Under the pieces are notes generated by a model that had not been told where the DNA came from, did no database searches, and saw only the letters and a program-made list of their open reading frames with translations. The position numbers and the translations under genes were made by a program. DNA of 64,000 nt from Planctomycetes bacterium GWF2_41_51 (lineage in GTDB: Bacteria > Planctomycetota > Phycisphaerae > Sedimentisphaerales > UBA12454), in assembly GCA_001825665.1 (NCBI GenBank), contig MHXZ01000018.1, positions 972 through 64,971 on the forward strand, given 5' to 3'. Each line of letters starts with the position of its first letter. The stretch's first letter is position 1. Positions 5,627 through 30,929 of the stretch are shown here, one piece after another.

Positions 5627-7324
5627 ATGAAAAATATCGATCTTGAAAAATATTCTTCAGCTTTCACTTTGGCGGATATGGAAATTTTTGTATTTCCGGA
5701 ATTGATGTATTCGCTGCTTCTTGCCAATATAATGAGTCCTTTGATTTGGAAATGGCGAGAGGATAAATCATTCAAAAAACTCGAAGGCAAAGACCCATAT
5801 AAAAAATTGATGCGGCTCCGCCAGTTTATCATGGATGAATTTGAATTTAATCTCGACCTTGAAACATGGGGATTGACGGATAAAAAATCAGAAATAAAAA
5901 GATTTGAAAATTTTCTCACAGAGAAGGAGATTTCCGAAAGTAATGCTCTGTTCGGATACGAAGGCGATAAATATTATTATGATGTAGATATCAGAAAACA
6001 TTTCGGCCTCGATAAATATACTACCGATATAATTCCCTACTGGAAAACCGAAACTGTCGAAGCTATGAACGCCTTTCGGCATAAGAAAGGCTATAAAACG
6101 GGCGCAGGCGAATGTGTTTCGCTGTCAACTTTGTATGCGGCGGCAGCGTTTATTGTCTGCGGCATACCACTTGAAGATATTTTTTTAATTCTCACTCCTT
6201 TGCATTCACAGAATTATATAGATATCAACGATGGCATTATTACAAACAACAGAAGACTCGTAACCAAGGCGATGTGGTTCAACGGCACTGAAACTTCCGA
6301 CAAGGCCCAGCGTGCTCTGCGCAACGAACAAATAACAATGGTCGCTCATACAAGCGGGCTCATCCATTGCCTGTATAAAGACGCTACAATTAACAAAACC
6401 GAATACCAAAAATTCCTCGGCAAGCTTAATAATTATCTTTATTATCCTCTCGAACCGTTAGGCGTCGCCAATTTCCTGCGCAGCAAAGGTCAGTACCAAA
6501 AACATTTCCAGTTCTGCCGTGACTGCCGCGGCAACGCGCAATTTATCAAGGCCGAAAAACTGTTTTCGTATGAGCATGGCAGCAATTTCAGGGTTTGCGA
6601 TCCTACCCATGAAAAACTTCTTGCGGAAGTGCACGAGGAAGATTTCTCAAATCACGAATATGCAAAAAGAATCCGCTGCGACCAGTTTAAGGAATATATG
6701 GGCAAAAAGAAACCGGACATAAACACTGAAGATGGGCGTAAAGAACTTGCGCACGTTTTGTCAGATTATATTCCCGATTCCGAAAAATTCGTCGCCGAGC
6801 TTTACGATTTTCTGCATATCGAACCGAGACTGCCGAGTGAAGATAAAAATTATATCAATGGCGAACCGATAAAAATCACGCCGGATATGAGCAGAGAGCA
6901 GATAATCGATTATCTCAAAAGCATAAGAGATAAAAACACAATTGCCGATTTAGCCTTTTACGCATACCGTGATATGGAAACCTGCGATTGGCAGCCCTAT
7001 ATAAAATCCGCAATTGAACGAAGTCCTGTATCGATTGGAATGACTAAAGATAAATCAATACAGGAATGCTTCGATTGGCTTGCAAATATGCCCAATGAAT
7101 CGATATATGATAACAAAAGACTTGCCCAGCCCGATGAAGTTGCAAATTATGGCCGCGGCGATGGTATCGAAAAAGCAATCACCCTCGCAAATATTATCCA
7201 TAAAAGAGAACCAACCAAAAAAATAGATATCAATATCAATAAAGAAAAAGTTGTTTTGACTGCCGACGAAAAATTTGAATTTGAAAGCCCAAAAGGATTT
7301 GAGAAAGATATAATAATATCTTAA
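5627..7324 (+). CDS. Hypothetical protein with a transglutaminase-like cysteine-protease core
   Basis: GAGECVSLSTLYAAAAFIVCGIPLEDIFLILTPLHSQNYIDIND fits the Cys...GIP...His...Asp order of the transglutaminase-like fold. The rest is unrecognised. Confidence 0.45.
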   Translation: MKNIDLEKYSSAFTLADMEIFVFPELMYSLLLANIMSPLIWKWREDKSFKKLEGKDPYKKLMRLRQFIMDEFEFNLDLETWGLTDKKSEIKRFENFLTEKEISESNALFGYEGDKYYYDVDIRKHFGLDKYTTDIIPYWKTETVEAMNAFRHKKGYKTGAGECVSLSTLYAAAAFIVCGIPLEDIFLILTPLHSQNYIDINDGIITNNRRLVTKAMWFNGTETSDKAQRALRNEQITMVAHTSGLIHCLYKDATINKTEYQKFLGKLNNYLYYPLEPLGVANFLRSKGQYQKHFQFCRDCRGNAQFIKAEKLFSYEHGSNFRVCDPTHEKLLAEVHEEDFSNHEYAKRIRCDQFKEYMGKKKPDINTEDGRKELAHVLSDYIPDSEKFVAELYDFLHIEPRLPSEDKNYINGEPIKITPDMSREQIIDYLKSIRDKNTIADLAFYAYRDMETCDWQPYIKSAIERSPVSIGMTKDKSIQECFDWLANMPNESIYDNKRLAQPDEVANYGRGDGIEKAITLANIIHKREPTKKIDININKEKVVLTADEKFEFESPKGFEKDIIIS

Positions 7325-7333
7325 TAAGTAAGT

Positions 7334-8875
7334 ATGGATAAGCAATTTAACGATAAAACTAACAATATGACCGAAGAACAGGTGCGATGTCTTACACGAT
7401 TTAAAATGCGTCGTTTTTTCGATGAAATTGAGAAAAAGGCAAAAAGACTTAAGCCCGAAAAATTTATTCCTTATGTTCTTAAGTTTTTTCATAATCCGAT
7501 GAGAAGGGAGATAATTGGTCCTCATACAATTTTGCAAGCAATAGAAGCAAATTGTGCTTATCACAAAAGTGGATACGATGAAGAAATTACGCATAAAAAA
7601 TTCGCTGATATAATTAACCTAATAATGAAATCTGAAGAGGAGAATGATTTTTATTTATGGTCAATCCATAATAGATTAGAGATTTTTTTTCAATTTATAA
7701 ACAGAATACAAATTGAAGTTCAAAAGACGGGCTTTTCTAAGTATTATTTATCGCGATATTGGAATTTATTTTATGACAATGATCATATACGAAAAATGCA
7801 TAATGATTTTGAAAATATTTATAAAATATCTGTAGAAAAATGGTTTTTGTGTTCATTTGCAATGTATGCGATGTTTGCAAAAGACTTTATCATACCCAAA
7901 GAATTTAAAATTTCTTCAAGTATGAGTATCGATGAAAATGACATTAGCACATATTTAAATTTTAGTTGTTATTCTGTCGCAGAAATACAGGAAAGATATT
8001 TTGAAACAAGAAAAAATATTAAAGAAGAATTTCATTTTCTTGTAAGAACAGTATTTGTAGAAAGGCCAATTGTTTTATTAGATGGCGATCAATTGGTTGC
8101 GCCAGTTCCAGAGTTGTTATTCCGTCATATGGGACATGGATTAAATGATTTATTTGAAAAAATAGATTCTTCTTACGGATGTTATTTAGGTAAAGCTTTT
8201 CAGGAGTATACAAAAAAAACATTAAATTGCCTAAGTAATGTAGTTCTATATTCAAATGAAGAGTTAGAAAAATTATCCGCAGGAGACAAAAGTTGTGATT
8301 TTCTTTTGGCTACACAGTCAGAAAATATCTTAATTGAGTGTAAGGCGATTGACTTAAAAGTTAGAACTCTGACAGAAAATGCTATATTTAACAGTAATGC
8401 GTTTTCTAAAATTAAAGATGGAATCTGTCAAATTGATAATACATTGAATAATATCATGAATGGGAAATTGTGTTTGCCTGGAATTGATACAAAAAAACCA
8501 TTCTTAAAGATGGTTGTTACTTTTGGTGAAATGTTTGGGTTTAACAGTGATTGGATATTTAATAAAATGTGCCCACAAATAAACTATGATGAGGAAAAAA
8601 ATCTTAAGCCAATGATTTTCTCAATAGCAGGACTTGAAAAGTTTGTGTTGTATATAGAAAATTCAAGTGAATCTCTCATTGATATTTATCATGCAAAACG
8701 GAAAGATGGATATTTTGCGACAGGTGATTGGGATAATTATTTAAGTAGTAAGATTGCTTCTATTAAACCAATAAAAAATGATATAAATTTTCTTAATGAG
8801 GGCTTTGATAGTATGCTTGATAAATTCGAAATTGATTTTGCAGGTAGAGAAAATATTTTAGATGATCATGACTGA
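7334..8875 (+). CDS. Hypothetical protein with a PD-(D/E)xK nuclease-like motif (AT-rich gene)
   Basis: FQEY...SCDFLLATQSENILIECKA fits the E...D...ExK restriction-endonuclease-like signature. The start is 10 bp after the upstream gene, and the gene is visibly AT-rich. Confidence 0.45.
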   Translation: MDKQFNDKTNNMTEEQVRCLTRFKMRRFFDEIEKKAKRLKPEKFIPYVLKFFHNPMRREIIGPHTILQAIEANCAYHKSGYDEEITHKKFADIINLIMKSEEENDFYLWSIHNRLEIFFQFINRIQIEVQKTGFSKYYLSRYWNLFYDNDHIRKMHNDFENIYKISVEKWFLCSFAMYAMFAKDFIIPKEFKISSSMSIDENDISTYLNFSCYSVAEIQERYFETRKNIKEEFHFLVRTVFVERPIVLLDGDQLVAPVPELLFRHMGHGLNDLFEKIDSSYGCYLGKAFQEYTKKTLNCLSNVVLYSNEELEKLSAGDKSCDFLLATQSENILIECKAIDLKVRTLTENAIFNSNAFSKIKDGICQIDNTLNNIMNGKLCLPGIDTKKPFLKMVVTFGEMFGFNSDWIFNKMCPQINYDEEKNLKPMIFSIAGLEKFVLYIENSSESLIDIYHAKRKDGYFATGDWDNYLSSKIASIKPIKNDINFLNEGFDSMLDKFEIDFAGRENILDDHD

Positions 8876-9785: not shown

Positions 9786-9825
9786 AATTTTCCGAAAATT
9801 ATCTTTCATTTTCAGAACAAATAAG

Positions 9826-9855
9826 TTACTATGTGATTATATATTCACATAGTAA
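9826..9855. promoter_or_regulatory. Candidate ArsR operator: 11-bp perfect inverted repeat
   Basis: TTACTATGTGA-TTATATAT-TCACATAGTAA lies 19 bp upstream of the arsR-family start. Confidence 0.6.
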
Positions 9856-9873
9856 TATATGTAAAGGCGTATA

Positions 9874-10203
9874 ATGACTGAAAAAACAAAAAAAATAGTG
9901 TATGAAAAACAGGCGGAAATATTAAAGGCGCTGGCTCATCCGGTTCGTGTCGCTATTCTTTATTTTCTTAAGGATGGCGAACAGTGCGTCTGCGATATCG
10001 CAAAGTATGTCGGCTCTGAACGGTCAAATGTTTCAAAGCATCTTTCCGTTTTAGTGTCCTGCGGCGTTCTGGATTTTCATAAAGAAGGACTAAACGTAAT
10101 ATATCGTTTGAAAGCCAGATGCATTATGGATTTTTTTGAATGTATAACCACTTGTCTCAAGCAGCAGGCAAACGAAAATATAAAACTCCTCAAGGCTATG
10201 TAA
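9874..10203 (+). CDS. arsR: ArsR/SmtB-family metalloregulator
   Basis: Winged HTH with the metal-site motif EQCVCDIAKYVG..SNVSKHLSVL. Confidence 0.85.
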   Translation: MTEKTKKIVYEKQAEILKALAHPVRVAILYFLKDGEQCVCDIAKYVGSERSNVSKHLSVLVSCGVLDFHKEGLNVIYRLKARCIMDFFECITTCLKQQANENIKLLKAM

Positions 10204-10204
10204 T

Positions 10205-11374
10205 ATGAGCATAAAAGCTGAAAGTAAAAAATTAATTCTGATAATTGCCGTTTTTCTTTTCATTTATTTTTTACCAATCGGCAATACGCGTTTTGATAAC
10301 GCCATTATGCAATCGCTGGCTCTTATTAAATGGTATGCAAGAGAGCATGTGCTTCTTTGTCTTATTCCGGCGTTTTTCATAGCGGGGGCTATTTCAGTTT
10401 TTGTCAGTCAGGCTTCGGTTATGAAATATCTTGGCGCAAAAGCTAATAAAATCCTTGCGTATGGTGTTGCATCGGTTTCGGGAACTATCCTTGCGGTTTG
10501 TTCCTGTACTGTTCTTCCGCTGTTTGCGGGGATTTATAAGATGGGCGCCGGATTAGGGCCTGCTTGTGCGTTTTTATATTCCGGCCCGGCGATAAACGTT
10601 CTTGCGATTATTTTAACTGCGAGAATTCTCGGTTTCCAGTTAGGTCTCGCGCGAGCAATAGGCGCAATCCTTTTCAGTATTGTAATTGGTTTATTAATGC
10701 ACTTTATTTATCGAAAAGAAGAAAACCAGAAAGCCGAAAATGCAATCGCTATGCCCGAGGCGGAAAAGAGCAGGCCGCTTTGGCAGAACGGTTTATATTT
10801 CGCGTCGATGGTCGCTATTTTGGTTTTCGCGAATTGGGCAAAACCGATTCAGGAAAGCGGGGCATGGGCTGCTGTTTACTCTGTTAAATGGATTATTACC
10901 GCGGTAAGTCTTGCTGCTTTGTTTGTTTTTCTTTTTCTGTGGTTCAAAAAAGATGATATGGTTCAGTGGACAAGTTCGACGTGGACTTTTACAAAGCAAA
11001 TTTTACCTTTACTTTTCGGAGGTGTTATTGTAGCAGGCTTTTTGCTCGGCACCCCTAGCGGCGAAGGTATAATACCTTCAAAATGGGTTTCGGCGGCAGT
11101 CGGCGGCAATTCAATTCGTGCCAATTTGTTCGCATCGGTTGCGGGTGCATTTATGTATTTCGCGACTTTGACGGAAGTTCCAATCGTTCAGGGGCTTGTC
11201 TCGGCCGGTATGGGTAAAGGTCCCGCTCTTGCGTTATTACTCGCAGGTCCGGCTCTTTCGCTGCCGAGCATGCTCGTTATCCGCAGCGTTATGGGGACTA
11301 AAAAAACAATTGTATTTGTCTCGCTTGTCGTTGTAATGGCGACTATTTCGGGAATGATTTTTGGAGCGTTCTAA
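10205..11374 (+). CDS. Permease of the ArsP/COG0701-type family (vicinal-Cys permease)
   Basis: Multi-TM protein with a CSC motif in a TM helix (ILAVCSCTVLPLFAG), sitting in an ars operon. Confidence 0.65.
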   Translation: MSIKAESKKLILIIAVFLFIYFLPIGNTRFDNAIMQSLALIKWYAREHVLLCLIPAFFIAGAISVFVSQASVMKYLGAKANKILAYGVASVSGTILAVCSCTVLPLFAGIYKMGAGLGPACAFLYSGPAINVLAIILTARILGFQLGLARAIGAILFSIVIGLLMHFIYRKEENQKAENAIAMPEAEKSRPLWQNGLYFASMVAILVFANWAKPIQESGAWAAVYSVKWIITAVSLAALFVFLFLWFKKDDMVQWTSSTWTFTKQILPLLFGGVIVAGFLLGTPSGEGIIPSKWVSAAVGGNSIRANLFASVAGAFMYFATLTEVPIVQGLVSAGMGKGPALALLLAGPALSLPSMLVIRSVMGTKKTIVFVSLVVVMATISGMIFGAF

Positions 11375-12186
11375 TGGAATCTAATGAAAAAATAAGGGAA
11401 GCGGTTCGCAAGGGATATGGCGAAATTGCCAAGGGCAGTTCGTGCGGCTGCTGCGGCTCATCATCTCCATCTAAACTTGCCAAGGGAATCGGCTATACGA
11501 AACAGGAACTTGCTGCTTTACCCGATGGCGCGAATATGGGGCTTTCCTGCGGCAATCCTACTGCAATTGCTAATCTTCAGCCCAGCCAGGTTGTTTTGGA
11601 TTTAGGCAGCGGCGGAGGGTTCGATTGTTTCATCGCCGCTAAAAAAGTCGGCAAAAAAGGAAAAGCAATCGGCGTGGATATGACTCCGGATATGCTCAGC
11701 AAAGCAAGAGTGAACATTTCGAAATTTACAAAAAAAACAGGTCTTGCCAATGTCGAATTTCGACTCGGCGAAATTGAACATCTTCCTGTCGCTGATAAAA
11801 GTGTCGATGTCGTTATCTCAAATTGCGTAATCAATCTTTCACCCGCAAAGCAGCAGGTCTGGAATGAAATCGTCCGTGTTTTAAAACCGAAAGGCAAAGC
11901 CTGTATTTCCGATTTGGCTCTAAAATCACCTCTGCCCAAAAAAGTTTTAAAATCTGCGGCCGCTTTGGTTAGCTGCGTCGCAGGTGCGGTACTGATTGAT
12001 GATACAATCAAAATGGCCAGGAAAGCGGGCTTAAAGAAAATCGACATCGAAGAAAAAGTATATAATATTGATGTAATGGCCGATTGCAGCGATCCGCTTT
12101 ATAAAGAGGTTAAGCAATATCTGCCAAAAGGCAAAAAACTTTCAGATTACATCGTAAGTATAAATGTTACGGCATTCAAGCTGTAA
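11374..12186 (+). CDS. arsM: Arsenite S-adenosylmethionine methyltransferase
   Basis: SAM motif [13 protein letters not shown] plus the conserved Cys positions ([26 protein letters not shown]). Confidence 0.85.
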
Positions 12187-12196
12187 GGGTATCAAT

Positions 12197-13288
12197 ATGA
12201 CAGAAGTAAAAACAAAAAATCTTAATGTTTTTGAACGGTATCTTACGTTATGGGTGATTCTTTGCATTATTGGCGGAATTATTTTAGGCAAAGTTGCGCC
12301 AGGTTTCGCGAAATCTCTTGATGCGATGGCAATTTATGTCGATGGCGCTCCCGTCGTTTCGATTCCAATCGCGATTGCACTTTTCTTTATGATGTACCCG
12401 ATAATGGTCAAAATTGATTTTGCCGCAGTCGTAAAAGCCGGCAAAAGTCCCAAACCCGTTCTGCTGACGCTGGTAGTTAACTGGTGTATCAAACCTTTTA
12501 CTATGTTTGCAATCGCGTGGTTTTTTCTTGGCGTGGTTTTTCGAGGCTTCCTTCCCGGAACGGAAATCGTAAAAGACGGTACGGAAGTCGAACTGTTCCG
12601 CTCTTATATTTCCGGCGCGATTCTGCTTGGCATTGCACCTTGCACTGCTATGGTGCTTATGTGGGGTTATCTCGCAAGAGGCAATCAGGGACATACATTG
12701 ATAATGGTTGCGATAAATTCGCTCACAATGCTCGTACTCTATGGTCTGCTTGGCGGCTGGCTGCTTGGCATAAATCGTATGCCTGTGCCGTGGCAGGCGC
12801 TTCTTTTATCAATCAGCATTTATGTTGCTCTGCCGTTAGTTGCTGGCTATTTCTCTCGCAAATGGGTAATTGCCGCAAAAGGCAAAGAGTGGTTCGAAGC
12901 GAAATTCCTCCACGTCCTTACACCTATATCAATTATCGCTTTGCTCGGAACGCTGGTGCTGCTGTTCAGCTTCAAAGGCGAAACGATTTTGAATAATCCG
13001 CTTACGATTCTCTGGATTGCGATTCCGCTTTTTATCCAGACAATTTTAATATTTGCGATAACTTATTTTCTGGCGAAGCTGCTGAAATTCTCTTATGAAG
13101 ATGCCGCGCCGTCAGCTATGATTGGCGCATCGAATCATTTTGAAGTTGCAATTGCGACTGCGACAATGTTGTTTGGCTTATCAAGCGGCGCCGCTCTTGC
13201 GACAGTTGTCGGCGTTTTAATTGAAGTACCAGTAATGCTTATGCTCGTCAAGATTTGTTTAAGAACACAAAAATGGTTTAAACGATAA
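12197..13288 (+). CDS. acr3: Arsenite efflux permease, ACR3 family
   Basis: [13 protein letters not shown] signature and about 10 TM helices. The ATG at 12197 is preferred over the 12164 extension that overlaps arsM. Confidence 0.85.
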
Positions 13289-13299
13289 AAGGTGTGAAA

Positions 13300-13533
13300 A
13301 TGAAAAAAATACAAATACTTGGAACAGGTTGTCCGAAGTGCAAAAAACTTGCCGAATGCGCCGAGCAGGCTGCCAAAGAAATGGCAATAGAATACCAGCT
13401 CGAAAAAGTTACACAAATCAATGATATTATGAAATTCGGCGTTATGATGACTCCTGCTCTGGTTATCGATGGACAGGTTAAAGCTGTGGGTAAAGTACTG
13501 ACTGTTGAACAAATAAAGGAAACACTAAGATGA
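13300..13533 (+). CDS. Small thioredoxin-fold redox-active disulfide protein (CPKC)
   Basis: KIQILGTGCPKCKKL...PALVIDG is typical of the small thioredoxin-like proteins that accompany COG0701 permeases. Confidence 0.75.
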   Translation: MKKIQILGTGCPKCKKLAECAEQAAKEMAIEYQLEKVTQINDIMKFGVMMTPALVIDGQVKAVGKVLTVEQIKETLR

Positions 13534-13967
13534 AAAAAATGCCTAAAATAATTGCTGTATTACTTCTTGCATCGTCAGTTGTGGCGGTAATAATGCTGAA
13601 GAACAAAGAGAATAAATCGCAAGCAGTCGCAATAGAAACTCCTCCGGCTGTTATCTCTGAATCTAATCAGCCTGCTCAGCCGCAGAAATTGCCGAAACTT
13701 ATCGAACTTGGCGCAGACAAATGTATCCCCTGCAAAATGATGAAGCCTATACTCGACGAACTCACAGCGGAATACAAAGGCAAACTCGATGTGATGTTTC
13801 ACGATGTATGGAAGGAACCGGCTTACGCTGAAAAGTATAACATCGAAATTATTCCCACACAAATTTTCCTCGGACCCGATGATAAAGAACTTTTCCGTCA
13901 TCAGGGTTTCTTCGCTAAAGAAGAAATTTTAACAAAGTGGAAAGAACTTGGGTTTGAATTGAAATAA
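13530..13967 (+). CDS. Membrane-anchored or exported thioredoxin-family protein (CIPC)
   Basis: N-terminal signal anchor followed by a thioredoxin fold with the CIPC active site. Confidence 0.75.
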   Translation: MKKMPKIIAVLLLASSVVAVIMLKNKENKSQAVAIETPPAVISESNQPAQPQKLPKLIELGADKCIPCKMMKPILDELTAEYKGKLDVMFHDVWKEPAYAEKYNIEIIPTQIFLGPDDKELFRHQGFFAKEEILTKWKELGFELK

Positions 13968-13969
13968 TT

Positions 13970-14668
13970 ATGCAGGAATTATTTACACAATTGACTCGTG
14001 CGGTTGAAAATACATGGTTGATTGCTCTTACAGCATCATTCATCTGGGGCATTTTAAGCATCTTATTGAGTCCATGCCATCTTGCGAGTATCCCGCTCAT
14101 CGTCGGCTTTATTGATCAGCAGGGAAAGATATCAACAAAGCGGGCGTTCTGGATTTCCACTTTATTTGCGGCAGGCATTCTTATAACTATCGCTCTTGTA
14201 GGTGTGATTACCGCAGCGGCAGGGCGGATGATTGGCAATGTCGGCAGGTATGGAAATTATTTCGTTGCTGCCGTTTTCTTTATCGTAGGACTTCTTCTGC
14301 TTGATGTGATTCCAATGCCGTTTTCAGGCCCCGGCAAAATCGGTATGAAGCAGAAAGGTTTATTGGCTGCATTTATTTTAGGGCTTGTTTTTGGAATCGC
14401 GCTTGGCCCCTGTACTTTCGCGTTTATGGCGCCGATGCTCGCTGTTACTTTCAAAACCGCTTCCACTAATCTCTTTTACGGCATTTTACTTTTAGTCGCT
14501 TACGGCATCGGCCATTGCTCTGTAATTGTTTTCGCAGGAACCTTCACCGAGGTTGTTCAGCGTTATATGAATTGGAACGAAAAGTCCAAAGGCGCGGTAA
14601 TCCTCAAAAAAATCTGCGGCGTACTTGTCCTTGCGGCGGGCCTGTATATGATTTATACTGCTCCTTAA
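13970..14668 (+). CDS. ccdA: CcdA/DsbD-family thiol-disulfide electron transporter
   Basis: Six TM helices with the two conserved Cys motifs LSPCHL and LGPCTFA. Confidence 0.8.
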   Translation: MQELFTQLTRAVENTWLIALTASFIWGILSILLSPCHLASIPLIVGFIDQQGKISTKRAFWISTLFAAGILITIALVGVITAAAGRMIGNVGRYGNYFVAAVFFIVGLLLLDVIPMPFSGPGKIGMKQKGLLAAFILGLVFGIALGPCTFAFMAPMLAVTFKTASTNLFYGILLLVAYGIGHCSVIVFAGTFTEVVQRYMNWNEKSKGAVILKKICGVLVLAAGLYMIYTAP

Positions 14669-14748: not shown

Positions 14749-14796
14749 TTGACAGCATTTTTTTGTATTATAATACTTCGTTATATGGCGAAGTAT
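14749..14796 (+). promoter_or_regulatory. Sigma70-type promoter (TTGACA ... TATAAT) overlapping an 8-bp inverted repeat (candidate ArsR operator)
   Basis: TTGACA at 14749-14754 with TATAAT downstream; the spacer is shorter than optimal. ATACTTCG-TTATATGG-CGAAGTAT lies at 14773-14796. Confidence 0.55.
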
Positions 14797-14806
14797 AGGA
14801 GGTAAA

Positions 14807-15166
14807 ATGCTCGACGTATTAAACATTACAAAGGCAATGTCGGACGAAAACCGGATTAGGGCATTAATGATGCTGACCGGCGGTGAACTCTGCGTTTGCC
14901 AGATAATTGAAATGCTCGGATTAGCCCCATCAACAGTGTCGAAGCATATGTCCATTCTTCGACAGGCCGGGCTGGTTAAGACACGCAAGGAAGGCCGGTG
15001 GATTTATTATCGGCTCGCTGATAGTAAAGCTCTAAAAGCGAGTGAAATACTCCGCTGGCTGGATAAACATTTGAAAAACGATAAGCGTATTTTAGACGAT
15101 GTTAAACAACTGCGGCAAATACAAAAGATTAGCAAAGATGAATTATGTCACTGCTATAAGAGTTAA
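14807..15166 (+). CDS. arsR: ArsR/SmtB-family metalloregulator (second copy)
   Basis: ELCVCQIIEMLGLAPSTVSKHMSILRQAGL motif. Confidence 0.85.
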   Translation: MLDVLNITKAMSDENRIRALMMLTGGELCVCQIIEMLGLAPSTVSKHMSILRQAGLVKTRKEGRWIYYRLADSKALKASEILRWLDKHLKNDKRILDDVKQLRQIQKISKDELCHCYKS

Positions 15167-15171
15167 AGAAT

Positions 15172-15618
15172 ATGAACATTAAACTTAAAATTTTATTTCT
15201 TTGTACCGGCAATTCGTGCCGCAGTCAAATGGCTGAAGGTTGGGCAAGGTATCTGAAAAATGATTGTATAGAACCTTACTCCGCAGGCATTAAAACACAC
15301 GGCCTTAATCCTAATGCTGTTAAAGTAATGGCTGAGGCGGGTGTGGATATTTCAGGCCAATATTCAAAGCACCTTGATGAATTAAAAGAAACAAATTTCG
15401 ATTATGTAATAACGGTGTGTGACAATGCTCACGAAAGCTGTCCAATGTTTCCCCGTAAGACAAAAGTTATTCATGCTGGTTTCGATGACCCGCCGAGACT
15501 GGCAAAAGAAACAAAAACCGAAGAAGAAGCTTTGAACATTTACCGTCGTGTTCGTGATGAGATAAAAGCGTTCATCGAGAAGTTTCCTGAATGTCTGGAA
15601 AAGAATAAAAATGAATAA
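15172..15618 (+). CDS. arsC: Arsenate reductase, LMW-PTPase/thioredoxin-coupled type
   Basis: CTGNSCRSQMAEG P-loop plus downstream Cys residues (VCDNAHESCP). Confidence 0.85.
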   Translation: MNIKLKILFLCTGNSCRSQMAEGWARYLKNDCIEPYSAGIKTHGLNPNAVKVMAEAGVDISGQYSKHLDELKETNFDYVITVCDNAHESCPMFPRKTKVIHAGFDDPPRLAKETKTEEEALNIYRRVRDEIKAFIEKFPECLEKNKNE

Positions 15619-15889
15619 TCTGAATAGAAATCAGGCTCAGGAAATCATTAAGGAGCTTGAAAACAGCATCATACGTCTGGAATGTTTGACATGTGACTGC
15701 TTTCAGGGGCTTTTGACTCAACTGGAACTGGACTGCCCGGAAGATGTCTGCGACCTGATCAGTTGTCTTAAGACTCCGACTGAAAAGATGCATGGTTGTC
15801 TCGGTTGCGACCCTTGTCTGCCGGGTGAGCTATTTGCTAAATATCTCAAGTCAAAAACAAATAACAATAACACAAATATGAAGGAATAA
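15611..15889 (+). CDS. Hypothetical Cys-rich protein
   Basis: ORF overlaps the arsC stop by 8 nt. Contains CLTCDC and CLGCDPC clusters. No family recognised. Confidence 0.45.
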   Translation: MNNLNRNQAQEIIKELENSIIRLECLTCDCFQGLLTQLELDCPEDVCDLISCLKTPTEKMHGCLGCDPCLPGELFAKYLKSKTNNNNTNMKE

Positions 15890-15895
15890 TACCAA

Positions 15896-16054
15896 ATGAA
15901 AACAGAAAAAAAGAAAAAAGGACTATTGGCAGCAATATGGGAATCTATGACCAAGACTGGCGGATGCTGCGGTGGTGGTGGAGGAGATTGCTGCGGCTCT
16001 TCAAATGAAGATGATAAAAAAACCTGTGAAAAAAAGAACTCGTCCGATGAATGA
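15896..16054 (+). CDS. Small (52 aa) Cys-rich peptide, candidate metal-binding partner of the ATPase
   Basis: Not in the ORF track because it is shorter than 60 aa. ATG follows GAAGGAA. Product is MKTEKKKKGLLAAIWESMTKTGGCCGGGGGDCCGSSNEDDKKTCEKKNSSDE. Its stop overlaps the ATPase ATG (GATGAATGA). Confidence 0.45.
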   Translation: MKTEKKKKGLLAAIWESMTKTGGCCGGGGGDCCGSSNEDDKKTCEKKNSSDE

Positions 16055-18014
16055 TAAAGAAAATGATACGGCTGCCAGGTACAGGGAGATAGTGGTACTC
16101 AGTATCGTTCCCTGTATTGTTGGTGTTTTTATTTTAGTAAGCTGGACACTGGCTCATTGGAAAATAGGCCCAAATTTCCTGAATGCTGGTTTAGCCCTTT
16201 TGGCTATTCTGTTTGGCGGTTATCTTCGATTTGTCTCAGGCTTCAAAGATATTTTTAAACGTAAAATAACTGTAAATGTATTTGTTACGGTTGCTCTTAT
16301 TGCTACTATGGCTGTTGGAGAGTTCAGGGCGGCAGCAATCATTGTGTTTATTATGGCGGTAGCGGGGGCACTTGAGTCTTATACGCTGGACAAAACTCGC
16401 AGAAGCATAAGAAACCTGCTGGACCTTACACCCAAGACAGCAATGATACGTCGCGGAAATGATGAAGTTAATATCCCTGTCAGCGAAGTGCAGATTGATG
16501 ATGTTGCGGTTGTCAGACCCGGAGGTCGAATCCCTGTCGATGGAATCGTGATAACAGGACAAAGTTGTGTCAACCAGGCTCCCATTACAGGTGAGTCAAT
16601 TCCTGTCGAAAAGTTTAAAGGCAGCGAAGTATTCGGAGGAACTCTGAATGAGACAGGCAGACTTGAAGTTAAAACCACCAAGGTCGGCAATGATACTACA
16701 CTTGCCAGAATAGTTCATCTTGTGGAACAAGCGCAAGGGACAAAAGCTCCAATTCAAAATCTTGCAGACCGCTTTACAACATGGTTTTTGCCTGCGGTGC
16801 TGGTCTTGGCAATTATAGCTTTCTTCTTATCGGGTAATGTCAAGGTTGCTATATCAGTTCTTCTTGTTGCCTGTCCATGTGCTTTTGCAATTGCTACTCC
16901 AACGGCTGTTACTGCTGGTATATCTAATATGGCCCGACATGCAGTCCTTATTAAAGGCGGGATATTTCTGGAGCTTGCTCAAAAAATAGATGTGCTCCTT
17001 GTGGACAAGACAGGAACATTTACCTTTGGAAAACCAAAGGTCGTCGATGTGATTGCTTTTAACAATATGCCGGAAGAAGAGGTCTTGCGTTTAACCGCTA
17101 TAGCGGAGAAATATTCTGAACATCCATTAGCCAGGTCGGTTATGGCTCGTGCTAAAGAGTGCGGTATCGTTGTTCCTGACCCAGACGATTTCAATATCGA
17201 AGTTGGAATGGGAGTTACTGCAAAATTAGACAATATAGAAATTTTAATAGGCAATAACAAGTTTTTGAAAGACAAAGGTGTTTATGTTGCCGAGCATATC
17301 GAATATGCAGTTTCAAAGCAAACTGAACAAGGTAGAACAACCATTCTCGTAGCTAATGATAACAAACCAATTGGCTTGATTGCCATTGCTGACGAGATTC
17401 GCCCCCAAACTTCTCGTGCTATAGCATCTCTGAAAGCTATGGGCATTAAAAAAATCATAATGCTCACAGGAGATAATCAAAGAGTTGCGAAATCTGTAGC
17501 AAGAGAAATCGGAGTTGATGATTTTCAGGCCGAGCTTCTTCCGGAACAAAAATTACAATATGTGGAAAAATTACAAAAACAGGGAAAAGTTGTCGGAATG
17601 ATTGGTGATGGTATAAATGATGCTCCTGCATTAGCATTAGCTGATGTTGGTATTGCGATGGGTGCAGCCGGAACCGATGTGGCTGTTGAAACAGCCGATG
17701 TAACTTTGATGAATGATGATTTATCGCAAGTAGTAAATTTTATGCATATGTCAAAGAAAGTTTTGTCACGCATTAAACTTAATATCTTCTTTTCCATGTT
17801 CTATAATGTAATCGGTTTTACTCTTGCTGGTTTTGGGCTGCTCACGCCCATAGTAGCGGTTCTTTTTCAGGAGGCCGGTTGTATTACGGTAGTATTCAGT
17901 TCAACATTGCTATTGTGGGCAAAAACAAAATCATCGATAAAAAACGATAATATTTCAGGCATTGGCCGAACTATTGAAAATACTGCGAATGATAATGTCT
18001 CACAATGTGCATAA
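16047..18014 (+). CDS. P1B-type heavy-metal-translocating ATPase (CPC), without an N-terminal HMA domain
   Basis: CPC in a TM helix (VACPCAFAIATP), DKTGT, TGDN and GDGINDAPAL motifs. The ATG at 16047 is preferred to the GTG at 15972, and the protein starts directly with TM helices. Confidence 0.85.
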   Translation: MNDKENDTAARYREIVVLSIVPCIVGVFILVSWTLAHWKIGPNFLNAGLALLAILFGGYLRFVSGFKDIFKRKITVNVFVTVALIATMAVGEFRAAAIIVFIMAVAGALESYTLDKTRRSIRNLLDLTPKTAMIRRGNDEVNIPVSEVQIDDVAVVRPGGRIPVDGIVITGQSCVNQAPITGESIPVEKFKGSEVFGGTLNETGRLEVKTTKVGNDTTLARIVHLVEQAQGTKAPIQNLADRFTTWFLPAVLVLAIIAFFLSGNVKVAISVLLVACPCAFAIATPTAVTAGISNMARHAVLIKGGIFLELAQKIDVLLVDKTGTFTFGKPKVVDVIAFNNMPEEEVLRLTAIAEKYSEHPLARSVMARAKECGIVVPDPDDFNIEVGMGVTAKLDNIEILIGNNKFLKDKGVYVAEHIEYAVSKQTEQGRTTILVANDNKPIGLIAIADEIRPQTSRAIASLKAMGIKKIIMLTGDNQRVAKSVAREIGVDDFQAELLPEQKLQYVEKLQKQGKVVGMIGDGINDAPALALADVGIAMGAAGTDVAVETADVTLMNDDLSQVVNFMHMSKKVLSRIKLNIFFSMFYNVIGFTLAGFGLLTPIVAVLFQEAGCITVVFSSTLLLWAKTKSSIKNDNISGIGRTIENTANDNVSQCA

Positions 18015-18047
18015 CGTTTAAACAATAAAATAGTGAAAGGAAAATAT

Positions 18048-18734
18048 ATGGCAGAAAATCAATCAGAATGTGGGCCGGGATGTAATTGCGGTAAGCCTTC
18101 GGGAAGCAAAAAACTAAAAATCACAATTTGTATTATTGTGTTGTTAGCGGTAAGCAGTATTTTTGCTTACAAGACAAAGAACGGAAAACAAACCGCACCA
18201 GTTAATACGGCAACTGCATTTGCTGTTCCTATTGTAAAAGAAGTAAATGAGCAGAATTCCGTAGCCTCTATTATCGATAAGCGCGAATCGACAATCAAAG
18301 CGGTAGAGGAAAATAAAAAAGTGGGTGAGTTTCTGGATTCACTATCTGCTCTCGACAAGGTAGCTATAAACCAGGACTCTGTATTTGTCTTTATTCCTGC
18401 TAAGGGAAATGAAACGATTAGTAAGGAAATTATGGCTGCAATTACGTCCGCAGAACAAAAAATAAAATCAAAAGGGGCAAGTCTTGGCTTATATACCATG
18501 CAATCCAGTTCACCGGAATATGCCAATATCGCCGCTCAATTGCCTCCACCATCAATACTGGTTATGAGTAAAGGTCGTGGTATGGGAGCGGTGTCAGGAG
18601 GAATAACAGAAGAGAAAATTTTGCAGGCATACGTTGCTTCGTCTCAAGCAGGTGGCTGTGGCCCATCAGGTTGCGGGCCGTCTTCTTCAGGTTGTGCTCC
18701 TACAGCACCTATTGGTCCTGTAAGGACAAGGTAA
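18048..18734 (+). CDS. Hypothetical membrane-anchored protein with Cys-rich termini
   Basis: N-terminal CGPGCNCG, one TM helix, and C-terminal GGCGPSGCGPSSSGC. Confidence 0.45.
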   Translation: MAENQSECGPGCNCGKPSGSKKLKITICIIVLLAVSSIFAYKTKNGKQTAPVNTATAFAVPIVKEVNEQNSVASIIDKRESTIKAVEENKKVGEFLDSLSALDKVAINQDSVFVFIPAKGNETISKEIMAAITSAEQKIKSKGASLGLYTMQSSSPEYANIAAQLPPPSILVMSKGRGMGAVSGGITEEKILQAYVASSQAGGCGPSGCGPSSSGCAPTAPIGPVRTR

Positions 18735-18750
18735 AGAAGGAAACTTTATA

Positions 18751-19446
18751 ATGCTCGAATCTGTTACTGATACATTGCAGCAAGTTGCATCGCAGCCTTT
18801 GGGGTTAGTATTTGCCTTAATTCTGGGAACCGTAAGTGCCGCAACCAGTGCCTGCTGCACGTTACCGGCATTGGGAATACTGGTTGGCTATTCCGGCACA
18901 CAGGCAAATGATAGCAGAAAGGCAGCAATAAAAACCGCTTTGCTCTTCACAATGGGAACGATTATCTCCCTTATGATTATTGGAGGAATCGCCGGGTTCG
19001 TTGGTCAGGTTGCTCAAAATACTTTGGGGCGATATTGGAAAGTCTTTGCCGGTATAGTTGCGGTCTTTCTCGGTCTGGCGGCCTTGAACCTTCTGCCTTT
19101 TAAGCTTTCATTCGGCAAGTTCGATGGTATTAAAAGCAAAATAGGAAAATCGGGAATTATATTAACCGGTCTTATACTCGGCGGCATTGTTGCTGTCAGT
19201 TCTCTGCCTTGTAATCCCGGTATTTTTATTGTTATTGGTGCGGCGATTTTGCAGGGTAAAGTCTTCTGGGCGACACTTATGCTGGCGATGTTTGCCATTG
19301 GTTTCAGCCTGCCGCTGGGAGCGGTGCTGCTCGGAATTTCGCTGAGCAAAGTCAGCCTTGCTGCCAGAGGCGCCGATTTTGCGTTTCGCTGGATATCAGG
19401 GGCAGTCCTTGTCGTTGCGGGATTTTATTTTCTCGTAACATTTTAA
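18751..19446 (+). CDS. CcdA/DsbD-family membrane protein (second, divergent copy)
   Basis: Six TM helices with Cys motifs SACCTLPA and SLPCNPG. Confidence 0.65.
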   Translation: MLESVTDTLQQVASQPLGLVFALILGTVSAATSACCTLPALGILVGYSGTQANDSRKAAIKTALLFTMGTIISLMIIGGIAGFVGQVAQNTLGRYWKVFAGIVAVFLGLAALNLLPFKLSFGKFDGIKSKIGKSGIILTGLILGGIVAVSSLPCNPGIFIVIGAAILQGKVFWATLMLAMFAIGFSLPLGAVLLGISLSKVSLAARGADFAFRWISGAVLVVAGFYFLVTF

Positions 19447-19585: not shown

Positions 19586-19906
19586 ATGAAGATAGGGATA
19601 ATTATTTCAACCAACGACAATGAAACATCATGGAACGCATTTAGATATGCAAACTTTGCTCTTGGCCAAAAAGATGAGGTCAAAATATTTTTGGCGGGAA
19701 AAGGAGTCGAGTATCAGTCTTTTAGCACGGAAAAATTCAATACTGTCCAGCAGGCTGAAAAATTTCTTCAGGCAGGCGGCAAAATACTCGCCTGTGGAAC
19801 CTGTATCAAATCCCGCAATCAGCAAGATTCAGAAATGTGCCCGATTAGCACGATGAAGGATATGTACGAGATTATAAAAGAAAGCGATAAAGTCGTAACT
19901 TTCTAA
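19586..19906 (+). CDS. DsrE/DsrF-like family protein
   Basis: Small Rossmann-like protein: KIGIIISTND...FLAGKGV...ILACGTC. Confidence 0.55.
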   Translation: MKIGIIISTNDNETSWNAFRYANFALGQKDEVKIFLAGKGVEYQSFSTEKFNTVQQAEKFLQAGGKILACGTCIKSRNQQDSEMCPISTMKDMYEIIKESDKVVTF

Positions 19907-19992
19907 TATCCGCGGCCTTCTTCAAAAAATTATTTTGGCAGTTAAAGGTAATGAACAATTGCAGGAATGCTCGGTCTTATCACAAAAATTGA

Positions 19993-21117
19993 ATGAGTAA
20001 AATAACTGAAATAGCAAAATTGTTTCTTAAGCTTGGTACGATTGCTTTCGGCGGGCCTGCTGCGCATATTGCCATGATGCATAATGAAACTGTCGAAAAA
20101 CGAAAATGGCTCGATGACCAGCAGTTTCTCGATTTAATCGGCGCAACAAATCTTATCCCCGGCCCCAATTCTACTGAAATGGCTATTCACATTGGCTTTT
20201 TGCGTGCTGGTTGGCGAGGATTAATTGTAGGCGGCTTATGTTTCGCTGCCCCGGCGATAGTAATTGTTCTTTTTCTCGCATGGCTTTATTCTCTCTATGG
20301 CACTTTGCCGTCAGTCCAATGGCTTTTATATGGTGTAAAGCCGGTGGTGATAGCGATAATCTTGCAGGCGCTTTGGCAATTAGGCAGAAAGGCAATTAAA
20401 GATACACTTACCGCGACGATGGCGTTAATTGTTTTTGTCCTCTACTTTATGAATGTAAATGAAATTTTTCTTTTGTTTGCCGGCGGATTTATCGTGATGC
20501 TGGTCAAAAATATCCGTCAATTACAAAAAAGCACTAAATGTATATCTTTAGTTCCGCTTGGCGGCATCGGTATTTTATCGCAGACCATTAATTTTAATCT
20601 CCCGATGTTATTTTTTATTTTTCTAAAGATTGGAGCTGTATGGTACGGAAGCGGTTATGTGCTTCTTGCTTTTCTGCGCAGTGATTTTGTTGAACGTCTG
20701 GGCTGGCTTACAGATCAGCAATTGCTCGATGCTATCGCGATTGGTCAGGTAACGCCGGGACCTTTGTTTACAACCGCAACATTTATTGGTTTTCTTCTGG
20801 GCGGTTTTAAAGGTGCTGTGCTTGCGACTCTTGGAATTTTTCTGCCTTCATTTATTTTTGTCGCGATTTCCAATCCTTTAATTCCTCGCTTGCGCAAATC
20901 ACCATGGGCTGGGGCTTTATTGGATGGCATCAATGCCGCCGCACTAAGTCTCATGGCCGCGGTAACTTGGCAATTAGGCACTGATTCTTTAATTAATATT
21001 TATGCAATCTTGATTTTTGTAATTTCATTTATTTTGCTTATTCGTTTCAAAATTAATTCTACATGGTTAATAGCGGCCGGAGCTTTAATCGGACTTCTAA
21101 ATGCTGCCTTTCATTGA
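19993..21117 (+). CDS. chrA: Chromate transporter, CHR family (two-domain)
   Basis: FGGPAAHIAMM and GQVTPGPLFTTATFIG motifs appear in the two halves. Confidence 0.8.
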   Translation: MSKITEIAKLFLKLGTIAFGGPAAHIAMMHNETVEKRKWLDDQQFLDLIGATNLIPGPNSTEMAIHIGFLRAGWRGLIVGGLCFAAPAIVIVLFLAWLYSLYGTLPSVQWLLYGVKPVVIAIILQALWQLGRKAIKDTLTATMALIVFVLYFMNVNEIFLLFAGGFIVMLVKNIRQLQKSTKCISLVPLGGIGILSQTINFNLPMLFFIFLKIGAVWYGSGYVLLAFLRSDFVERLGWLTDQQLLDAIAIGQVTPGPLFTTATFIGFLLGGFKGAVLATLGIFLPSFIFVAISNPLIPRLRKSPWAGALLDGINAAALSLMAAVTWQLGTDSLINIYAILIFVISFILLIRFKINSTWLIAAGALIGLLNAAFH

Positions 21118-21181
21118 AATTATTGTTTAGTCCTTGCCTGTAGATTTTGTTTGATTAATATAATGCTTGATTTCCATAAGG

Positions 21182-21565
21182 ATGTTTATGTTGCAGAAAT
21201 TATTTTATCTTGCTCTGGCCGGAGCCGCGGGTACACTCGCCCGTTATTGGCTAAGCGGTCTGGTTCAGAAAAACATTACATTTAATTTTCCTCTCGGCAC
21301 TGCCGCTGTAAACATATTCGGCTGTCTGATGTTCGGCCTTGTATGGGCGATTCTTGAAAACAGATTTTCACTCGGCGGGCAGACTCGCATAATTATCTTT
21401 GTCGGTTTTTTCGGCGCATTTACCACTTTTTCGTCATTTGCATTTGAATCATCGCAGATGCTCGACGACTCACAATGGCTTTGGACCTCAGTCAATATAA
21501 TTACGCAAAATATACTCGGGCTTATTGGTATGGTAACCGGTCTGGCAATCGGCAAATATATTTAG
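21182..21565 (+). CDS. crcB: Fluoride ion channel CrcB/FluC
   Basis: GTLARYW and GFFGAFTTFSSF motifs with four TM helices. The start is ambiguous (21167 TTG, 21182 or 21188 ATG). Confidence 0.8.
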   Translation: MFMLQKLFYLALAGAAGTLARYWLSGLVQKNITFNFPLGTAAVNIFGCLMFGLVWAILENRFSLGGQTRIIIFVGFFGAFTTFSSFAFESSQMLDDSQWLWTSVNIITQNILGLIGMVTGLAIGKYI

Positions 21566-30784: not shown

Positions 30785-30929
30785 AATGGTTTCTTAAATA
30801 TCATATAAGGCATTTGATGTTGGTTATGCGGACGTTGAAATTCGAAAATAGCTTTTTTAGTATTGAAACAGCAGTTTTTAGTTATCGGAATAAAAAAACT
30901 ATACTGAGGATGAAAAGTTGTCGGGAGTT

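Follow-up and report, generated by a model that had tools for sequence, protein, structure and literature searches.

A cysteine-rich mini-protein paired with an HMA-less P1B-type ATPase in arsenic operons: a candidate metalloid export system

Transport of metalloids by P1B-type ATPases has precedents. The ant system is described as acting on Sb(III) and consists of the ATPase AntA, the chaperone AntC and the regulator AntR (PMC12641948), and TtArsX of Thermus is a P1B-2 ATPase with a fused metal-binding domain (PMC5960188). Coordination by three cysteines is the established mode of As(III) binding in ArsA, ArsD (Cys12, Cys13, Cys18) and ArsR (PMC12415280). Here we describe a locus in a 64,000-nt stretch of contig MHXZ01000018.1 from Planctomycetes bacterium GWF2_41_51 (the window), in which an arsR-headed series of genes encodes a Cys-rich mini-protein of 52 amino acids (aa) and, directly downstream, an ATPase of P1B type that is devoid of the heavy-metal-associated (HMA) domain. 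We find it reasonably probable that these two proteins constitute an As(III)/Sb(III)-exporting pump fed by a mini-chaperone. Our best explanation of the locus as a whole is that two distinct accessory modules of arsenic operons stand next to each other under an ArsR of the As(III) type.

The arrangement is reminiscent of AntR-AntC-AntA from Comamonas testosteroni JL40, an operon that comprises a regulator of the ArsR family, a small chaperone and a P-type ATPase. This likeness is one of description (PMC12641948), and in the window an arsC gene and a gene for a 92-aa protein intervene between arsR and the mini-protein/ATPase pair. In comparison with AntA and AntC as described there, members of the present clade come from anaerobes and archaea and lie in full ars operons, carry the motif QEAGC in transmembrane helix 6 (TM6) and have a partner of ca. 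50 aa without a known fold; the system is partly anticipated by the ant genes. With CopZ-CopA the pair has in common the CPC motif of TM4 and the YN motif of TM5, and it would share the principle that a thiophilic ion is delivered by a soluble chaperone to cysteines within the membrane. Unlike the copper system, it contains neither an HMA domain nor a ferredoxin-like CxxC chaperone, MxxSS is changed to QEAGC, the TM5 proline is lost, and the genes lie in an ars instead of a cop/cue context. Chaperone-fed, ATP-driven extrusion of arsenite is also the principle of ArsD-ArsA-ArsB/Acr3, with a vicinal Cys pair and a third Cys in the chaperone (ArsD C12, C13, C18), but the ATPase described here is of the P-type and not a Walker-A protein like ArsA, and the mini-protein does not have the thioredoxin fold of ArsD. 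Whereas ArsA energises a secondary carrier, the P1B pump would itself carry the metalloid. Like the present ATPase, TtArsX of Thermus thermophilus is a P1B enzyme under an ArsR/SmtB repressor, and it contributes to arsenic resistance (PMC5960188); its fused CXXC domain, full P1B-2 signature (TM5 K, TM6 DxG), promiscuity towards Cd and position outside an ars operon have no counterpart in the present clade. A search of the literature outside subscription papers gave no description of this arsenic-operon P1B ATPase clade, of the mini-protein family or of the membrane protein pair treated below, and NCBIfam release 20 holds no specific model.

The mini-protein and its gene

A scan of species-representative genomes yielded 80 loci, of which 74 encode an ATPase 58-83% identical to that of the window. 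Their hosts, by the labels of the metagenome-assembled genomes, are Planctomycetota/Sedimentisphaerales, Kiritimatiellota, Verrucomicrobiota, Lentisphaerota/Victivallales, Dehalococcoidia, Thermodesulfobacteriota, Eubacteriales, Actinomycetota, Omnitrophota, Bacteroidota and archaea of the Methanoregulaceae/Methanomicrobiales. Six proteobacterial loci (L073, L075-L078 and L080), with ATPases 42-44% identical to the window's, form the outgroup. Neighbours were counted when located within 6 kb of the pump, and comparison of the 80 loci was restricted to proteins encoded in the window. In each of the 70 related loci for which upstream DNA is available, a mini-protein homologue is encoded directly upstream of the ATPase; 47 of these were found by tblastn and the remaining 23 by inspection. 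The pairing extends over about ten bacterial phyla and Methanoregulaceae archaea, with spacings that vary from a 20-nt overlap to a gap of ca. 80 nt.

Between 14.8 and 19.4 kb the + strand of the window carries a dense series of co-oriented genes, from arsR through the gene for a CcdA-like protein:

14749 to 14796, + strand: candidate promoter with overlapping inverted repeat (consensus scan; position ahead of arsR)
14807 to 15166, + strand: ArsR-family repressor (alpha-3 GELCVCQIIE, C-terminal CHC; PF01022, E 4e-17)
15172 to 15618, + strand: ArsC arsenate reductase of the low-molecular-weight protein tyrosine phosphatase type (PF01451, E 6e-21)
15611 to 15889, + strand: 92-aa Cys-rich protein (CxxCxC ... 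HGCLGCDPCxPG; below every curated family cut-off)
15896 to 16054, + strand: 52-aa mini-protein (homologues upstream of ATPase genes; codon variation)
16047 to 18014, + strand: HMA-less P1B-type ATPase, 655 aa (Pfam E1-E2_ATPase and HAD hydrolase; TIGR01525)
18048 (ATG) to 18734, + strand: membrane-anchored thioredoxin-fold protein, 228 aa (233 aa from the alternative GTG start at 18033)
18751 to 19446, + strand: membrane protein of the CcdA/DsbD superfamily, 231 aa (hhalign to the canonical CcdA family)

An earlier note, made from the DNA letters of the window, had drawn attention to most of these features, and all its statements on the sequence hold. The ATG of the ATPase (16047) indeed sits in the stop region of the 52-aa open reading frame (ORF), within GATGAATGA, with an overlap of 8 nt, and the arsC end (15618) overlaps the start of the 92-aa ORF (15611), also by 8 nt (ATGAATAA). 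The two Cys clusters which the note reported for the 92-aa protein, of the CxxCxC and CxxCxxC types, are CLTCDC and CLGCDPC. The Cys-rich termini of the anchored protein and the CC motif of the CcdA-like protein are present as described (CGPGCNCG and SACCTLP), and the operon is headed by an ArsR with an ELCVC metalloid site. The note had called the 52-aa ORF unannotated. Its exact sequence has no match in a collection of 15 billion proteins, and the ORF is uncalled in the window genome. In the JGI annotation the ATPase is called as a 680-aa protein from a GTG at 15972, and the small ORF is hidden beneath it. GenBank labels the ATPase (655 aa) as copper-translocating and the 92-aa (OHB53105.1), 228-aa and 231-aa proteins as hypothetical.

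For the note, lack of conservation of the small ORF would have spoken against its reading. Besides the pairing in 70 loci, the codon usage in the conserved block bears on this point. Among 45 distinct DNA versions of the block, the invariant Ser is encoded by TCG, TCC, TCA and TCT, all four Gly codons occur at the Gly positions, and Cys is encoded by TGC in 25 and TGT in 19 cases. Such synonymous change implies purifying selection acting on the protein; judged by this conservation, the 52-aa ORF is a genuine gene and not a chance ORF. The sequence AAGGA lies 10-14 nt ahead of its ATG, and from the gene overlaps we infer possible translational coupling.

The mini-protein consists of a Lys-rich N-terminus, an amphipathic segment (GLLAAIWESMTK), a Cys cluster (GGCCGGGGGDCCG) and a variable charged tail. 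The peptide around the cysteines reads ...KTGGCCGGGGGDCCG..., with Cys codons at 15965-15970 and 15989-15994. Among the homologues there are two variants, ...KKKKG(L/F)LAAIWESMTKTGGCCGxGxxC(C/G)... and ...KKKG(L/F)WALLKESIAKSNDGCGPGCGCH..., both of which end in a variable tail rich in Lys, Glu and Asp. The spacing of the cysteines is CC-x5-C(C). The Cys core contains three to five cysteines in 77 of 78 versions (three in 31, four in 43, five in 3). A protein database contains 242 clusters of mini-proteins, every one unnamed or hypothetical and without a Pfam domain. No match to ArsD (PF06953), a thioredoxin-fold domain of about 120 aa, was found even at E <= 10 for this protein of only 52 aa, the likeness being confined to a Cys pair with a third Cys, and it is not of the HMA/CopZ type (PF00403) either, as there is no Pfam match and no CxxC motif and the protein is too short for a ferredoxin-like fold. 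We propose that it acts as metalloid chaperone of the ATPase.

The one version with fewer than three cysteines is that of locus L010, from the complete genome of Thermodesulfobacteriota ORM2a, which has two. Its mini-protein ORF (5757-5927) contains an in-frame TGA (5835-5837) at the position of the second Cys of the cluster in the other versions, and the frame is conserved past this codon: MKNEEKKKKGFWSAIMESMAKTGGCS-TGA-GPGEGCGGPATKDD..., that is KTGGCS-TGA-GPGEGCGG followed by a typical charged tail. As no other version is down to two cysteines, a selenocysteine encoded by the TGA would supply the missing third ligand. A local hairpin, GUUGCGGG-GGU-CCUGCAAC (-11.4 kcal/mol), begins 13 nt past the TGA and presumably resembles the selenocysteine insertion sequence (SECIS) of E. 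coli fdhF in sequence and spacing. As to a SECIS element, the minimum free energy structure of the 50-nt segment is a different fold, which is not significant (z = -1.46), and Rfam gave no match. The L010 mini-protein is a possible selenoprotein version, by reading frame and cysteine count; if it is one, the exchange of Cys and Sec identifies this position as central to mini-protein function.

The ATPase and its cysteine site

Judged by its motifs the ATPase is of the P1B type, with catalytic core, HP motif and TM4 CPx all present. The catalytic motifs are LLVDKTGTFT, PITGESIPV, SEHPLA and GDGINDAP, there are matches to PF00122 and PF00702, and eight hydrophobic segments may be read as TM helices. 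Homologues are mostly 654-658 aa long and 78-92% identical, with a range of 58-92% for the clade as a whole. The absence of an HMA domain from this CPC-type ATPase, stated in the earlier note, applies to the entire clade: PF00403 is not matched by the window ATPase, in which Pfam recognises only E1-E2_ATPase and HAD hydrolase, and none of 59 full-length clade members has an HMA domain. A cytosolic HMA or His-rich metal-binding domain is common in P1B ATPases but does not strictly define them. The protein begins ca. 14 residues ahead of the first hydrophobic helix. This N-terminal tail contains no conserved Cys or His, its only Cys being 32% conserved.

Exactly three cysteines are invariant in the 59 full-length members, i.e. 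C276 and C278 of the TM4 CPC motif and C612 in TM6. The CPC motif (16872-16880) lies in ACPCAFAIATPTAV, which is invariant in all 59 and aligns with the CPC of both E. coli CopA and ZntA. C612 (codon 17880-17882) ends the TM6 motif QEAGC (17868-17882), which is part of the invariant string FQEAGC. In a MAFFT alignment of the ATPase with E. coli CopA and ZntA, the residues of TM5 and TM6 correspond as follows:

Y586: CopA Y784, ZntA L692
N587: CopA N785, ZntA K693
Q608: CopA M813, ZntA D714
C612: CopA S817 (second Ser of MxxSS), ZntA T718

A hand alignment that had E609 opposite ZntA D714 was replaced by this register, in which Q608 takes that place. The HMMER alignment to A. fulgidus CopA gaps the TM6 helix, so that the exact register of TM6 remains a model. 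The A. fulgidus residue homologous to C612 is Ser715.

The ATPase carries none of the subgroup signatures with which it was compared, in agreement with the earlier observation that its TM6 does not fit the Cu or Zn/Cd patterns. In the signature of P1B-1, the Cu(I)/Ag(I) subgroup, TM5 has YN(x)4P, of which the YN is kept and the proline lost, and MxxSS of TM6 has become Q608-E-A-G-C612. The signature of the Zn/Cd/Pb subgroup P1B-2, with Lys in TM5 and Asp in TM6 (DxG), is absent, N587 being at the position of ZntA K693 and Q608 at that of ZntA D714, and so is that of P1B-4, as TM4 has CPC and TM6 QEAGC. The motifs of P1B-4 (Co/Zn) pumps are SPC in TM4 and HEGxT in TM6. As aligned, the scaffold is Cu-pump-like with the TM6 ligands replaced, a Cys occupying a Cu(I)-pump ligand position. 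The best-scoring model is the generic heavy-metal model TIGR01525 (597 bits, cut-off 346). Both the Cd model TIGR01512 (489 bits) and the Cu model TIGR01511 (456 bits, cut-off 397) are also passed, and these subfamily models therefore do not discriminate. The nearest relatives of solved structure are A. fulgidus CopA (452 bits), the P1B-4 pump sCoaT (407), Legionella CopA (382) and ZntA (300).

In the ATPases of the outgroup an HMA domain (GLCCTEC) is still fused to the pump, and TM6 is without a Cys. Loss of the HMA domain, gain of the TM6 Cys and presence of the mini-protein thus go together. In five of the outgroup loci (L073, L075, L076, L077 and L080) the ATPase gene lies beside ArsR-family genes; in the encoded proteins GLCCTEC forms a three-Cys loop of the HMA domain, which is unusual, and TM6 has ATE(A/V)xPD. 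These five ATPases may represent another metalloid- or Pb-type subgroup.

Arsenic context, proposed function and alternatives

The earlier note had considered a thiophilic metal or metalloid plausible as substrate. By the genomic context a thiophilic metalloid fits best, since at least one of ArsR, ArsC, Acr3 and ArsM is encoded near the pump in 68 of the 74 loci, and ArsC, Acr3 or ArsM in 58. Individually, ArsR is found in 55, Acr3 in 52, ArsC in 43 and ArsM in 21 loci. The loci without ars genes are mostly on short or truncated contigs, and the archaeal loci have an ars context as well. Nearly all ArsR neighbours have an ELCVC-type (xLCxC) motif, including the adjacent ArsR of the window, in which ELCVC forms the CVC metalloid site and which heads the operon. 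ArsD occurs in five loci. In two of these, L023 (3101-3737) and L024 (5177-6001), arsD is located a short distance upstream of the mini-protein/ATPase pair without arsA, which suggests that in some organisms ArsD may serve the P1B pump. ArsA itself is almost absent (1 of 80 loci), consistent with a P1B pump filling its role.

A candidate promoter, TTGACA-17-AATACT (14749-14777), is located just ahead of the ribosome-binding site of arsR and is overlapped by an inverted repeat, ATACTTCG-N8-CGAAGTAT (14773-14796), a possible ArsR operator. The consensus scan of the window gave 36 promoter-like sites against 27 +/- 5 expected from shuffles, which is no enrichment, and promoter and operator are thus positional suggestions only.

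From the reality of the small gene, its pairing with the ATPase, the conservation, the motif positions, the folds and the context we infer a substrate, a chaperone role, a hand-off and a direction of transport. The first module is the invariable pair of mini-protein and ATPase, which would use ATP to export a trivalent metalloid, namely As(III), Sb(III) or both. Cytosolic metalloid would be captured by the mini-protein, which has three or four clustered cysteines and would stand in for an HMA domain or a CopZ-type chaperone. By exchange of thiol ligands, the metalloid would be passed to the three-Cys transmembrane site formed by CPC and Cys612, and the phosphorylation cycle of the P-type ATPase would then release it outside. 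The replacement of HMA domain or chaperone by the mini-protein is proposed because As(III) is bound by three cysteines, the mini-protein offers at least three and the pump has three invariant ones.

Several points weigh against this pump-and-chaperone scheme. With Acr3 in 52 of 74 loci and ArsP in the window, another arsenic exporter looks partly redundant. The docking of the mini-protein on the pump is putative, and the mini-protein is probably largely disordered. Pb(II), Hg(II) and Cd(II) are likewise suited to trigonal thiolate sites, and regulators of the CadC type, which control Cd/Pb pumps, have the CVC motif as well. Among relatives of solved structure, Cu(I) pumps are the nearest, and the Cu and Cd cut-offs of NCBIfam are both passed.

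In another reading, a thiophilic cation is the substrate (Pb(II), Cd(II), Hg(II), Zn(II) or Cu(I)); the pump would merely share a multi-toxin island and an ArsR/SmtB-type regulator with the ars genes, and the mini-protein would be a cation chaperone. Databases label the ATPase as copper- or Cd/Zn-exporting, in keeping with the scores for TIGR01512 and TIGR01511, with CopA and a P1B-4 pump as nearest solved structures and with the Cu-type YN retained in TM5; ChrA and CrcB are encoded downstream in the window, and sites of three thiolates (S3) fit Pb, Hg and Cd too. A link to mercury was considered as well, since many of the host lineages are known to methylate Hg. We nevertheless regard export of a cation as unlikely. 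An ars context is retained across phyla and in archaea (68 of the 74 loci), but L004, the closest relative, is the only one of these with ChrA and CrcB beside the pump. ArsD is found near the pair in some loci. All ligands of the Cu type in TM6 (MxxSS) and of the Zn/Cd type (K693 and D714 of ZntA) have been replaced. No CopZ or HMA protein is present among the Pfam-scanned neighbours in the window, mer genes and HMA proteins not having been searched for in the 80 loci. Closer to the metalloid pump is the idea that its substrate is methylarsenite (MAs(III)) made by the linked ArsM, and not inorganic As(III). MAs(III) is highly toxic and needs export, and ArsM is encoded in the window and within 6 kb in 21 of the 74 loci, but most loci are without it. 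Moreover, MAs(III) binds two thiols whereas three cysteines are conserved at each station, and the window already encodes ArsP, a dedicated MAs(III) permease, all of which makes methylarsenite a very improbable substrate.

The function of the small protein can also be seen differently. It could be a subunit for regulation or assembly, which keeps the ATPase gated or inhibited as long as its own cysteines have not been modified by a thiol-reactive toxicant, similar to the small-protein regulators of other P-type ATPases. Strict adjacency and frequent overlap of start and stop suggest co-production at a 1:1 ratio, the Lys-rich amphipathic N-terminal helix looks like an element for docking to a membrane or protein and not like a folded metal-binding domain, and no known chaperone fold was detected. 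The invariant cluster of at least three cysteines, with its possible Sec substitution, suits binding of a ligand better than docking, and a pump that has lost its own cytosolic metal-binding domain must receive its substrate from something; such a regulatory or assembly subunit appears to us quite unlikely. The earlier note had envisaged a split metallochaperone/ATPase/thiol-relay system, which in its strongest form would be one obligate machine of five proteins: the 92-aa protein, the mini-protein, the ATPase, the anchored protein and the CcdA-like protein. In the window and its closest relatives L001, L003 and L004 these genes form an uninterrupted run in one orientation, overlapping or separated by short gaps; clusters of cysteines are found in all components, and the 92-aa and mini-protein ORFs are fused in L001 and L003. 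The distribution over the 74 loci contradicts conservation of a five-gene module. The core of the split system, mini-protein plus ATPase, stands as an invariable pair, but the anchored and CcdA-like proteins are encoded near the ATPase in 35 loci, on either side and in many cases upstream, and not within 6 kb in the other 39; they also occur in ars operons without a P1B ATPase, and the 92-aa protein accompanies the pump in four loci only. An obligate five-protein machine is accordingly the least probable of the arrangements considered here.

If the metalloid pump fed by the mini-protein is real, many anaerobes and methanogens possess a P1B-class pump that expels arsenite/antimonite at the expense of ATP. 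The P1B ATPases would then cover a wider range of substrates and of ligand chemistry than is known, with a third transmembrane Cys at a known ligand position, and the mini-proteins would be a new family of very small metallochaperones. Because annotations name a copper or cadmium pump here, and the partner is hypothetical or not called, surveys of arsenic genes (Acr3, ArsB, ArsA, ArsM etc.) would miss the clade, which concerns those of anoxic soils, sediments, peat and groundwater. The system is compact, with two genes, and might be of use in the engineering of biosensors or bioremediation, as the ant genes already are.

The membrane protein pair and other neighbouring genes

The protein encoded downstream of the ATPase has a single TM helix between an N-terminal CGPGCNCG (CGPGCNC, 18069-18089) and a C-terminal GGCGPSGCGPSSSGC (18657-18695). 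Its invariant cysteines are C8, C12 and C14 (CGPGCxC), and C204 and C216 in a disordered C-terminal tail. In the AlphaFold2 model residues 21-44 form a helix, and residues 90-202, with predicted local distance difference test values of 80-90, are arranged as beta-alpha-beta-alpha-beta-alpha-beta-beta-alpha. Thioredoxin and PDI domains make up nearly all of the top 50 PDB matches in Foldseek (best E 1.6e-4); as modelled, the domain has a thioredoxin fold. No CxxC is found among its invariant columns, the cysteines being confined to the N-terminal CGPGCxC and the C-terminal tail. There are 371 homologues, all unnamed. In five of them, and in the copy of L010, an ArsD domain (PF06953, E 2e-40 in P0250) is present at the N-terminus; examples of such fusions are P0250, P0303, P0349, L010 (3001-4020) and L081 (8001-9002). 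Fusion to ArsD combined with one TM helix implies that the N-terminus is cytosolic and that the thioredoxin-fold domain is outside.

The 231-aa protein encoded next has three cysteines that are invariant in its close family, in SACCTLP (C35 and C36, 18853-18858) and SLPCNPG (C154, 19210-19212). By profile comparison it is a full-length CcdA/DsbD homologue: hhalign matched it over 220 columns to the family of the window's canonical CcdA (probability 96.5%, E 8e-10), Cys motif against Cys motif. In single-sequence Pfam scans the window protein has no match, and its homologue in L082 has PF13386. Pfam and NCBIfam scans of the mini-protein, the 92-aa, the anchored and the CcdA-like proteins of the window gave no match above cut-off. 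The CcdA-like family comprises 277 cluster representatives at E <= 1e-3 among 1.8 billion, and it grades into the canonical SPC...PC motifs via intermediates with CC at either site. The vicinal CC in TM1 is reminiscent of MerT and MerF, MerT-type transporters having such a pair in a TM helix.

A CcdA homologue paired with a single-pass thioredoxin-fold protein is also the composition of systems of the CcdA-ResA type, but in contrast to these the thioredoxin partner has no CxxC, the cysteines come in threes per protein or terminus, and the partner is sometimes fused to a cytosolic ArsD. The pair is found in ars operons that lack a P1B ATPase, such as those of L081 (arsR-arsC-arsA-[ArsD-anchor]-CcdA-like-acr3) and L082 (arsR-arsP-anchor-CcdA-like-acr3-trx...DsbD_2), which makes it an ars accessory pair in its own right. 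This second module might handle As(III) or thiol redox chemistry at the membrane and would not be an obligate partner of the pump; together with the ArsD fusions it points to a second, unexplored step of arsenic handling at the membrane. Alternatively, electrons could be moved, as from CcdA to a periplasmic partner. That the pair passes As(III) itself through successive tri-thiol sites we consider doubtful. Equally speculative is a wider scheme in which all stations of both modules are tri-thiolate As(III) sites that form ligand-exchange relays across the membrane. One relay would run from the mini-protein to CPC and C612 of the pump, and the other from ArsD or the cytosolic CGPGCxC via the CcdA-fold protein to the Cys tail of the periplasmic thioredoxin-fold protein, the CcdA fold being repurposed from electron transfer to metalloid translocation with CC and C in mid-membrane. 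If these relays exist, they include a P-type ATPase with a metalloid at an S3 site, a metalloid conduit of the CcdA family and a natural selenocysteine chaperone.

The gene for the 92-aa protein is found beside the ATPase only in close Planctomycetota relatives. In two of these (L001, 5197-5652; L003, 2747-3202) homologues of the 92-aa protein and the mini-protein are encoded in one ORF with no stop between. A scan of metagenomes gave 80 relatives of the 92-aa protein, all with CxxCxCF(Q/L)G and HGCLGCDPCxPG. Those with at least 60% identity are encoded between arsC and the mini-protein/ATPase pair, those with 45-58% often in other ars arrangements and those with 30-45% in unrelated contexts; for the most part the wider family is encoded away from ars genes. 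By its motifs the protein is a member of a wider, unnamed family of small Cys-rich proteins and a lineage-specific recruit. A weak match to the MtrA model (21 bits, cut-off 568) was discarded.

Upstream of this operon the window contains a second ars block (9821-14668), which consists of a 20-nt palindrome (9821-9860), ArsR2 (9874-10203), ArsP (10205-11374), ArsM, Acr3, a thioredoxin of the MTH895/ArsE family, a membrane-anchored CxxC thioredoxin and a canonical CcdA. The last three, a canonical thioredoxin-thioredoxin-CcdA set (13294-14668), recur as a trio in many related ars loci. Downstream (19586-21565) a DsrE/DsrF-like protein, with a faint match to YedF of selenium metabolism, ChrA and CrcB extend the toxic-anion island; L004 alone shares these genes with the window. 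Further upstream (5627-8875), adjacent ORFs of 565 and 513 aa without a Pfam family precede an EamA transporter and the ars island. The + strand from 22115 to 48205 carries a long polysaccharide-biosynthesis cluster, with a G+C content of ca. 0.33 at 30-46 kb and ca. 0.42 elsewhere. The cluster includes a glycyl-radical enzyme with PFL-like and Gly_radical domains (36202-38352), and several large ORFs without a Pfam match, among them those at 30918-32399 and 33348-34886.

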